A DNA stretch of 64,000 bases, from assembly GCF_000026545.1 (NCBI RefSeq), contig NC_011601.1; one strand, written 5' to 3'. The translations under genes and the position numbers were made by a program. The notes under the pieces were generated by a model. The model was not told the DNA's origin, made no database searches, and saw only the letters and a list, made by a program, of their open reading frames with translations. Positions 36,569-51,657 of this stretch are shown here, piece after piece (position 1 is the first letter of the stretch; the number at the start of each line of letters is the position of its first letter). Origin of the DNA: Escherichia coli O127:H6 str. E2348/69 (lineage in GTDB: Bacteria > Pseudomonadota > Gammaproteobacteria > Enterobacterales > Enterobacteriaceae).

Positions 36569-38500
36569 ATGAGTTATCAGGTCTTAGCCCGAAAATGGCG
36601 CCCACAAACCTTTGCTGACGTCGTCGGCCAGGAACATGTGCTGACCGCACTGGCGAACGGCTTGTCGTTAGGGCGTATTCATCATGCTTATCTTTTTTCC
36701 GGCACCCGTGGCGTCGGAAAAACCTCTATCGCCCGACTGTTGGCGAAGGGGCTAAACTGCGAAACCGGCATTACCGCGACGCCGTGCGGCGTGTGCGATA
36801 ACTGTCGTGAAATCGAGCAGGGGCGCTTTGTCGATCTGATTGAAATCGACGCCGCCTCGCGCACTAAAGTCGAAGATACCCGCGACCTGCTGGATAACGT
36901 TCAGTACGCTCCGGCGCGTGGTCGTTTCAAAGTTTATCTCATCGACGAAGTGCATATGCTGTCGCGTCACAGCTTTAACGCACTGTTAAAAACCCTTGAA
37001 GAGCCGCCAGAGCACGTTAAGTTTTTGCTGGCGACGACCGATCCGCAGAAATTGCCGGTGACGATTTTGTCACGCTGTCTGCAATTTCATCTCAAGGCGC
37101 TGGATGTCGAGCAAATTCGCCATCAGCTTGAGCACATCCTCAACGAAGAACATATCGCTCACGAGCCGCGGGCGCTGCAATTGTTGGCACGCGCCGCTGA
37201 AGGCAGCCTGCGAGATGCCTTAAGTCTGACCGACCAGGCGATTGCCAGCGGTGACGGCCAGGTTTCAACCCAGGCGGTCAGTGCGATGCTGGGTACGCTT
37301 GACGACGATCAGGCGTTATCGCTGGTTGAAGCGATGGTCGAGGCCAACGGCGAGCGCGTAATGGCGCTAATTAATGAAGCTGCTGCCCGTGGTATCGAGT
37401 GGGAAGCGTTGCTGGTGGAAATGCTCGGTCTGTTGCATCGTATTGCGATGGTACAACTTTCGCCTGCTGCTCTTGGCAACGACATGGCCGCCATTGAGCT
37501 GCGGATGCGTGAACTGGCGCGCACCATACCGCCGACGGATATTCAGCTTTACTATCAGACGCTGTTGATTGGTCGCAAAGAATTACCGTATGCGCCAGAC
37601 CGCCGTATGGGTGTTGAGATGACGCTGCTGCGCGCGCTGGCGTTCCATCCGCGTATGCCTCTGCCTGAGCCAGAAGTGCCACGCCAGTCCTTTGCGCCCG
37701 TTGCGCCAACGGCAGTAATGACGCCAACACAGGTGCCGCCGCAACCGCAATCAGCGCTGCAGCAGGCACCGACTGTACCGCTCCCGGAAACCACCAGCCA
37801 GGTGCTGGCGGCGCGCCAGCAGTTGCAGCGCGTGCAGGGAGCAACCAAAGCAAAAAAGAGTGAACCGGCAGCCGCTACCCGCGCGCGGCCGGTGAATAAC
37901 GCTGCGCTGGAAAGACTGGCTTCGGTCACCGATCGCGTTCAGGCGCGCCCGGTGCCATCGGCGCTGGAAAAAGCGCCAGCCAAAAAAGAAGCGTATCGCT
38001 GGAAGGCGACCACTCCAGTGATGCAGCAAAAAGAAGTGGTCGCCACGCCGAAGGCGCTGAAAAAAGCGCTGGAACATGAAAAAACGCCGGAACTGGCGGC
38101 GAAGCTGGCGGCAGAAGCCATTGAGCGCGACCCGTGGGCGGCTCAGGTGAGTCAACTTTCGCTACCAAAACTGGTCGAACAGGTGGCGTTAAATGCCTGG
38201 AAAGAGGAGAGCGACAACGCAGTATGTCTGCATTTGCGCTCCTCTCAGCGGCATTTGAACAACCGCGGCGCACAGCAAAAACTGGCTGAAGCGTTGAGCA
38301 CGTTAAAAGGTTCAACGGTTGAACTGACTATCGTTGAAGATGATAATCCCGCGGTGCGTACGCCGCTGGAATGGCGTCAGGCGATATACGAAGAAAAACT
38401 TGCGCAGGCGCGCGAGTCCATTATTGCGGATAATAATATTCAGACCCTGCGTCGATTCTTCGATGCGGAGCTGGATGAAGAAAGTATCCGCCCCATTTGA
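36569..38500 (+). CDS. dnaX: DNA polymerase III subunits tau/gamma (tau full length; gamma by -1 frameshift)
   Basis: 643-aa ORF with Walker A GTRGVGKTS and zinc module CGVCDNC; internal slippery site present. Confidence 0.97.
   Translation: MSYQVLARKWRPQTFADVVGQEHVLTALANGLSLGRIHHAYLFSGTRGVGKTSIARLLAKGLNCETGITATPCGVCDNCREIEQGRFVDLIEIDAASRTKVEDTRDLLDNVQYAPARGRFKVYLIDEVHMLSRHSFNALLKTLEEPPEHVKFLLATTDPQKLPVTILSRCLQFHLKALDVEQIRHQLEHILNEEHIAHEPRALQLLARAAEGSLRDALSLTDQAIASGDGQVSTQAVSAMLGTLDDDQALSLVEAMVEANGERVMALINEAAARGIEWEALLVEMLGLLHRIAMVQLSPAALGNDMAAIELRMRELARTIPPTDIQLYYQTLLIGRKELPYAPDRRMGVEMTLLRALAFHPRMPLPEPEVPRQSFAPVAPTAVMTPTQVPPQPQSALQQAPTVPLPETTSQVLAARQQLQRVQGATKAKKSEPAAATRARPVNNAALERLASVTDRVQARPVPSALEKAPAKKEAYRWKATTPVMQQKEVVATPKALKKALEHEKTPELAAKLAAEAIERDPWAAQVSQLSLPKLVEQVALNAWKEESDNAVCLHLRSSQRHLNNRGAQQKLAEALSTLKGSTVELTIVEDDNPAVRTPLEWRQAIYEEKLAQARESIIADNNIQTLRRFFDAELDEESIRPI
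37852..37892 (+). promoter_or_regulatory. dnaX programmed -1 ribosomal frameshift signal (slippery heptamer plus downstream stem-loop)
   Basis: A AAA AAG at 37852-37858 in the 0 frame; the -1 frame then reads GAG TGA (stop at 37861-37863); GC-rich hairpin ccggcagccgctacccgcgcgcggccgg at 37865-37892. Confidence 0.85.
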
Positions 38501-45816: not shown

Positions 45817-45900
45817 GTAGGCCAGATAAGGCGTTCACGCCGCATCTGGCATTTTGCTTTCAATGCCTGATGCGACGCTGGCGCGTCTTATCAGGCCTAC
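45817..45900. repeat. BIME: two inverted REP elements downstream of gsk
   Basis: gtaggccagataaggcgttcacgccgcatctggca and gcctgatgcgacgctggcgcgtcttatcaggcctac in opposite orientation. Confidence 0.65.
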
Positions 45901-51573: not shown

Positions 51574-51657
51574 ACACCGTCGCTTAAAGTGACGGCATAA
51601 TAATAAAAATATGAAATTCCTCTTTGACGGGCCAATAGCGATATTGGCCATTTTTTT
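51574..51657 (+). ncRNA. chiX: Small regulatory RNA ChiX (MicM/SroB)
   Basis: ACACCGTCGCTTAAAGTGACGGCATAATAATAAAAATATGAAATTCCTCTTTGACGGGCCAATAGCGATATTGGCCATTTTTTT matches ChiX from memory, ending in a terminator hairpin (GGCCAATAGCGATATTGGCC) plus U-run; ybaK-ybaP intergenic as in K-12. Confidence 0.9.

Follow-up and report, generated by a model that had tools for sequence, protein, structure and literature searches.

Introduction

The closest described system is the frameshifting element (RF00382) in dnaX of Escherichia coli K-12. In the published cassette, a slippery heptamer (A_AAA_AAG) lies between a 5' Shine-Dalgarno (SD)-like sequence and a 3' stem-loop; a -1 shift of about 50% or more takes place, and the gamma stop codon is reached one codon later. 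Three stimulators are described, namely the heptamer, the SD-like sequence and the hairpin; owing to their spacing, the hairpin has reached the mRNA entry channel, and the SD-like sequence has paired with 16S rRNA, at the moment when the P and A sites hold the heptamer. The dnaX shift in vivo is about 50%, and efficiencies of 50-80% are also quoted. By the main route, both tRNA-Lys slip during hindered translocation; a slow route with one tRNA is used under aminoacyl-tRNA limitation only. At a distance of 11-12 nt from the P-site codon, the hairpin also inhibits binding of the A-site tRNA. In E. coli, AAA and AAG are both read by a single tRNA-Lys which pairs better with AAA, so that the shift on A_AAA_AAG is favoured.

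The dnaX genes of Thermus thermophilus and Caulobacter crescentus also give tau and gamma at roughly 1:1. In T. thermophilus, RNA polymerase slips on a run of 9 A's, whereas the site analyzed here has 6 A's and ribosome-directed stimulators; in C. crescentus, gamma is made by post-translational cleavage, in contrast to the site analyzed here with its ribosome-directed stimulators. An X_XXY_YYZ heptamer with a 3' RNA structure, as in dnaX, is found at the sites of IS3-family elements (e.g. IS911) and at viral gag-pol and 1a-1b sites, and many IS elements also share the 5' SD-like stimulator. The shifts of the IS3-family and viral sites extend into an overlapping ORF and yield a fusion, whereas the dnaX shift truncates the product after one codon.

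The DNA analyzed in this study is a stretch of 64,000 nucleotides from E. coli E2348/69 (O127:H6), hereafter the window; all positions are those of the window, and all dnaX features are on its + strand.

A second gene of the window, copA, has its own known -1 frameshift site, at 55299-55293 on the - strand, from which CopA(Z) is made, as described in PMC6747150. Like the dnaX site, that of E. coli copA combines a -1 shift with an in-phase heptamer ending in A_AAG and a near-immediate -1 stop, and the product of both is truncated, in copA to the N-terminal domain; the gene is a different one, and the heptamer is C_CCA_AAG in copA and A_AAA_AAG in dnaX. The copA stimulators and efficiency reportedly also differ from those of dnaX (Meydan et al. 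2017).

Results

The dnaX gene and its frameshift cassette

The zero-frame ORF of dnaX, stop codon included, extends from 36569 to 38500 and encodes tau (643 aa, about 71.1 kDa), a DNA polymerase III subunit, as established from the ORF list, the translation and NCBIfam. It is the sole long ORF (643 codons) at the frameshift site in the ORF list, and its product matched the NCBIfam equivalog PRK07994, 'DNA polymerase III subunit gamma/tau', with 979.9 bits (cut-off, 613). The gene is 100% identical to dnaX of E. coli E2348/69 (O127:H6), and dnaX is single-copy in 5424 of 5426 complete E. coli genomes.

The local sequence, from about 37830 to 37899, is GUGCAGGGAGCAACCAAAGCAAAAAAGAGUGAACCGGCAGCCGCUACCCGCGCGCGGCCGGUGAAUAA. 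The slippery heptamer A_AAA_AAG is located at 37852-37858, about two-thirds along dnaX (codons 429-430 of 643). Since its first A is the third position of a codon, the zero frame is read GCA AAA AAG AGU GAA, with Lys429, Lys430 and Ser431. The phase is X_XXY_YYZ, as tandem -1 slippage requires, and the heptamer is unique, as no second in-phase X_XXY_YYZ heptamer is present anywhere in dnaX. When read in the -1 frame, the sequence from 37852 gives Lys Lys Glu stop; the last two codons, GAG (37858-37860, Glu431) and UGA (37861-37863, the gamma stop), together occupy 37858-37863.

Both stimulators were located around the heptamer. The internal SD-like sequence, AGGGAG, lies on the 5' side of the heptamer at 37836-37841, with 10 nt (37842-37851) between the two. 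The 3' stem-loop is at 37864-37893, and its structure by RNAfold is the same as the Rfam consensus structure. When the segment 37859-37895 was folded with RNAfold, a single dominant hairpin of 11 bp was obtained (-19.1 kcal/mol, 91% of the ensemble). This hairpin consists of a lower stem of 6 bp (ACCGGC/GCCGGU), an A/G mismatch, an upper stem of 5 bp in which one C is bulged (GCCGC/GCG-GC) and a loop of 5 nt, UACCC. Between heptamer and hairpin is the linker AGUGA (37859-37863), of 5 nt; the distance becomes 6 nt when it is measured past the closing A-U pair, to the first C-G pair.

The heptamer, the GC-rich hairpin 6 nt after it and the -1-frame stop GAG TGA had all been claimed in an earlier note on this DNA, and all three were recovered, the wording on the 6-nt spacing being acceptable for a linker of 5 or 6 nt. 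That note had placed the cassette at 37852-37892. This extent is slightly too narrow: the full DnaX frameshifting element was found by cmscan at 37833-37897, aligned to positions 1-65 of the 65-position model RF00382 (96.8 bits, E = 5.8e-20; gathering score, 35), and AGGGAG had been omitted.

A run of A's in dnaX might also be used by RNA polymerase. Slippage of the polymerase on it, as in T. thermophilus, would add A's to the mRNA or leave some out, and ordinary translation of these mRNAs would give gamma. A homopolymeric A run is indeed present at the site, and slippage of this type is documented for T. thermophilus dnaX in a review; however, the run here has only 6 A's (37852-37857), and the runs on which bacterial slippage takes place are, according to the review, of 9 A's or T's. 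Nor does a polymerase-based event need a conserved and precisely spaced SD-like element and hairpin, both of which are directed at the ribosome, and the E. coli event is ascribed to the ribosome in the literature. Transcriptional slippage was thus given next to no weight as the source of gamma, and programmed -1 ribosomal frameshifting is the reading followed below.

Products of the dnaX gene

The gamma coding region extends from 36569 to 37863. It is read in the zero frame up to Lys430 (AAG, 37856-37858); the -1 slip then re-reads G37858 as part of GAG (Glu431), and translation ends at UGA (37861-37863). The protein predicted by translation has 431 aa, a mass of about 47.6 kDa and the C-terminus ...ATKAKKE. 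Chains of DnaX of 643 and of 431 residues are both present in the PDB, the latter as 8giy_B. The domains of tau were assigned with Pfam: the AAA+ module, the lid and domain III are within residues 20-358 (domain III, 232-358), and the two domains found in tau only are domain IV (DnaB-binding, 417-498) and domain V (alpha-binding, 500-640). With the shift at residue 430, these boundaries mean that gamma loses most of domain IV and all of domain V.

Products in addition to tau and gamma were also considered. In the -2/+1 frame, the sequence past Lys430 encodes 12 residues, RVNRQPLPARGR, followed by UGA (37893-37895), where the 3' arm of the hairpin ends. Translation of this frame gives a hypothetical gamma-like protein of 442 aa with a basic tail. 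Alternative slippages have been observed in vitro on dnaX model mRNAs. That the cassette yields minor products of this kind is very unlikely; if it did, a conserved in vivo function of the -2/+1-frame product would be new.

Identity with the K-12 site and annotation

The 65-mer at 37833-37897 was compared with the sequence of E. coli K-12 MG1655 and is identical to it base for base. This is the K-12 sequence of the published experiments, so the comparison with the published dnaX site suggested in the earlier note comes out as complete identity. The element here and that of K-12 (RF00382) share their length (65 nt), phase, products, SD-like element, spacers and stem-loop; the differences are limited to the surrounding gene, with zero within the element. 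In the first 1509 nt of dnaX, 30 differences from K-12 were found, none of them in the 189-nt block 37759-37947. Within the species, identity of the element is 99% or higher in 5372 of 5423 E. coli genomes, and the whole of dnaX is only 95-99% identical in 4505 of 5424.

The 'DnaX frameshifting element' is already present in the RefSeq (PGAP) annotation of E2348/69, as a sequence_feature at positions 37833-37897 of the window. Apart from this feature, PGAP gives the CDS of tau and no other CDS for dnaX in E2348/69. In the RefSeq record of K-12 MG1655, tau and gamma have separate CDSs. The gamma CDS consists of 2 joined segments, and its last base, 493386 of the record, corresponds to 37863 of the window and closes the same UGA. 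The earlier note had identified the site as the dnaX signal by which gamma is produced from the tau reading frame, and this identification is borne out by PRK07994 for the gene, by RF00382 for the element and by the end of the K-12 gamma CDS. It had also remarked that a single ORF call understates the coding output at this locus; for E2348/69 this is the case, as gamma is left without a CDS.

Conservation and covariation in Enterobacterales

Species-representative genomes were scanned with the pattern AGGGAG-N(8-12)-AAAAAAGAGTGA, and at least 120 loci were matched. About 43 of the matches listed are in dnaX of Enterobacterales. The genera and species represented among the dnaX matches listed include Citrobacter, Escherichia albertii, Enterobacter, Kosakonia, Kluyvera, Pluralibacter, Phytobacter, Siccibacter, Pseudescherichia, Pantoea, Mixta and Serratia, and the tau proteins of the Enterobacterales matches listed are 64-99% identical to that of the window. 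The many matches in Collinsella were rejected as dnaX relatives; they sit at the 5' end of the gene for the primary sigma factor.

A comparison set of 36 distinct dnaX sequences (the window and 35 other Enterobacterales) was assembled from the matches listed; as it was picked by the AGGGAG, heptamer and GAGTGA pattern, it is no measure of how often the cassette is absent, and the spacing and the hairpin alone were left unconstrained in it. Although spacings of 8-12 nt were permitted, the distance from the SD-like sequence to the heptamer is exactly 10 nt in every Enterobacterales dnaX match listed. When the 36 sequences, drawn from the matches listed, were folded singly, a hairpin was found in all of them, starting 4-6 nt past the heptamer and with energies of -16.9 to -30.4 kcal/mol.

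The position of the hairpin is constant and its sequence is variable, with at least three upper-stem layouts and loop sizes among these same 36 listed sequences. The stem is closed by A-U in 24 and by G-C in 10, and in the Mixta sequence (1 of the 36) a G-C pair of the inner lower stem is replaced by A-U. The E. coli structure was then imposed on the 36 sequences: 88.6% of the cells were paired, against 30-52% when the partners were slid by 1-3 columns. Two-sided changes were detected at five pairs, and the covariation score of this set from the matches listed was reached by none of 500 shuffles. Pairs 41-51 and 42-50 of the E. coli register are unpaired in about half of the 36 sequences. The absence of an upper stem in Enterobacter, Pantoea, Serratia and other clades was considered and rejected, because the single folds show a different, unbulged upper stem.

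These results also bear on the idea that the short product is derived from tau by proteolysis, with the sequence features being incidental, a model that has a precedent in C. crescentus, whose gamma is reported to be a cleavage product of tau. Proteolysis leaves unexplained the covariance-model match (E = 5.8e-20) as well as the invariant spacing and the hairpin covariation seen among the matches listed. Moreover, the -1 stop predicts a C-terminal Glu431, which is not encoded in tau (Ser431 at that position), and for gamma of E. coli the literature credits frameshifting. An origin by cleavage is regarded as extremely improbable, and frameshifting at the heptamer is the preferred explanation of these features.

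Chance tests

The heptamer and the GC-rich hairpin could also be a coincidence without function in a GC-rich, Lys-containing linker region. AAAAAAG is common, with 26 copies observed in the window (15.4 expected). The stability of the hairpin was compared with that of dinucleotide shuffles, and the shuffled sequences were nearly as stable (z = -1.81; 11 of 200 shuffles equally stable). The weakness of this score is explained by the fact that GC-rich 37-mers in general fold well. In place of shuffles, real 37-nt windows and a composite test on the 26 AAAAAAG copies were therefore used as the background for the hairpin. Equally stable 37-nt windows account for 0.6% of those in dnaX and 0.2% of those in the 64-kb window, and the dnaX windows that match the stability of the hairpin all overlap the hairpin itself. 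Of the 26 copies, the composite test singles out the one at 37852: no other combines the shift phase within a long ORF with an SD-like motif upstream, the most stable fold downstream and a -1 stop after one codon. The two further copies in dnaX (37982 and 38060) have phase 1, AAA AAA G.

Against coincidence, then, stand this unique combination at 37852 (phase, SD-like motif, strong hairpin and immediate stop) and the fact that the heptamer is the sole in-phase X_XXY_YYZ of dnaX. The element is nearly invariant in 5423 E. coli genomes, against a variation of 1-5% for the gene, and compensatory changes preserve the hairpin across genera among the matches listed. Given the score of the covariance model together with conservation and covariation, chance is excluded for practical purposes, and the site is read as a functional cassette.

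A possible long-range pairing that brackets the cassette (about 37825-37832 with about 37900-37907) was obtained in a 101-nt fold. With z of only -1.0 and 40 of 200 shuffles equal to it, this pairing was taken as not significant.

Discussion

The site in the window is almost certainly the native cassette of E. coli dnaX for programmed -1 ribosomal frameshifting, and no feature of the sequence speaks against this reading. Its anatomy and phase, its products, its identity with K-12, its family membership, its conservation and its covariation were established in this analysis. The cassette is a textbook one; it is intact and already annotated.

Identity with the K-12 element and the published experiments suggest that frameshifting takes place here, and that the efficiency and the kinetic mechanism would be those described for K-12. 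On this basis, a ribosome translating dnaX would come to have the Lys codons AAA AAG (37853-37858) in its P and A sites. The hairpin (37864-37893) would then be at the mRNA entry channel and would slow the translocation driven by EF-G, and AGGGAG (37836-37841), behind the ribosome, would be paired with the 3' end of 16S rRNA. Both tRNA-Lys could then move back by one base and pair with AAA AAA. A large share of the ribosomes would be shifted in this way, to read GAG and the UGA stop and release gamma (431 aa, clamp-loader domains I-III); the ribosomes that do not shift would go on to make tau (643 aa), with the extra domains IV (DnaB-binding) and V (alpha-binding).

The significance of the dnaX site is confined to correct annotation. 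From the one ORF of dnaX, two proteins of essential machinery are made, and gene callers that assign a single CDS overlook gamma.

The dnaX frameshift cassette

Beyond the dnaX heptamer, the −2/+1 frame reads RVNRQPLPARGR and then reaches a UGA at 37893-37895 (+), at the base of the hairpin on its 3′ side, so that both non-zero frames of the cassette end quickly. When 101 nt were folded, an upstream segment, GCAGCGCG (about 37825-37832), was paired with a downstream one, CGCUGCGC (about 37900-37907; both on the + strand), enclosing the entire cassette; the pairing in this 101-nt fold was not significant against shuffled sequences (z = −1.0).

Matches in other genomes

The cassette of Candidatus Pantoea persica dnaX was recovered by the genome pattern scan at L067:2972-3036 (−), L067 being one of the scanned loci. 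It retains an SD-like motif, the heptamer and a stop in the −1 frame, and its hairpin region is rearranged, with a different layout. Among the matches listed, its hairpin (−16.9 kcal/mol) is the weakest of the 36-sequence comparison set.

The exact string AGGGAG-N10-AAAAAAGAGTGA was found by the same scan at a Collinsella locus (L006:2457-2484, +) and at a minimum of about 45 further Collinsella loci, spread over many genomes of the genus. These matches fall at the beginning of the primary sigma-factor gene, and comprise an SD sequence (AGGGAG), a GTG start codon and CCA AAA AAG AGU GAG. The heptamer lies at codons 2-4 in the shift phase, with the initiation SD 10 nt 5′ of it, and the predicted product of a −1 slip is MPKKE-stop. 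Inspection by eye of the region 3′ of the Collinsella heptamer revealed no evident hairpin. The dnaX-like string at this gene start is probably a coincidence.

Other annotated features of the window

Strain-specific features of E2348/69 were taken from the RefSeq annotation. They include an ISEc13 (IS4-like) transposase between ybaY and an MGMT-family gene (about 19058-20431, +), maa, marked as a frameshifted pseudogene (about 23842-24394, −), and a short frameshifted ORF remnant directly before cueR (about 58020-58117, +). The small RNAs belong to known families, with Rfam matches exceeding the gathering score: sraA (1625-1721, −), the SRP RNA ffs (20931-21027, +), naRNA4 (CssrE; 45820-45897, +) and sroB (51574-51657, +).

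Recoding sites and AAAAAAG heptamers in the window

The second recoding site of the window is at 55293-55299 (−), inside copA (about 52995-55499, −). The window sequence has an in-phase C_CCA_AAG heptamer at codons 68-70, directly followed in the −1 frame by GGC UAA. This is the already known frameshift site for the copper chaperone CopA(Z) (Meydan et al., 2017, as cited in PMC6747150). In the RefSeq annotation of E2348/69, the full-length CDS is the sole copA entry.

AAAAAAG occurs 26 times in the window, and 10 copies are inside ORFs longer than 200 aa. Eight of these are in phase 1 (AAA AAA G), including two extra copies in dnaX (37982-37988 and 38060-38066, both +) that are not shift-prone; the local fold 3′ of the first is fairly stable (−17.2 kcal/mol). 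One copy (54502) is in phase 2, and the dnaX site alone is in the shift-prone phase 3 (X_XXY_YYZ). This distribution would be compatible with coding regions avoiding shift-prone heptamers, but 10 copies are too few for a statistical test.
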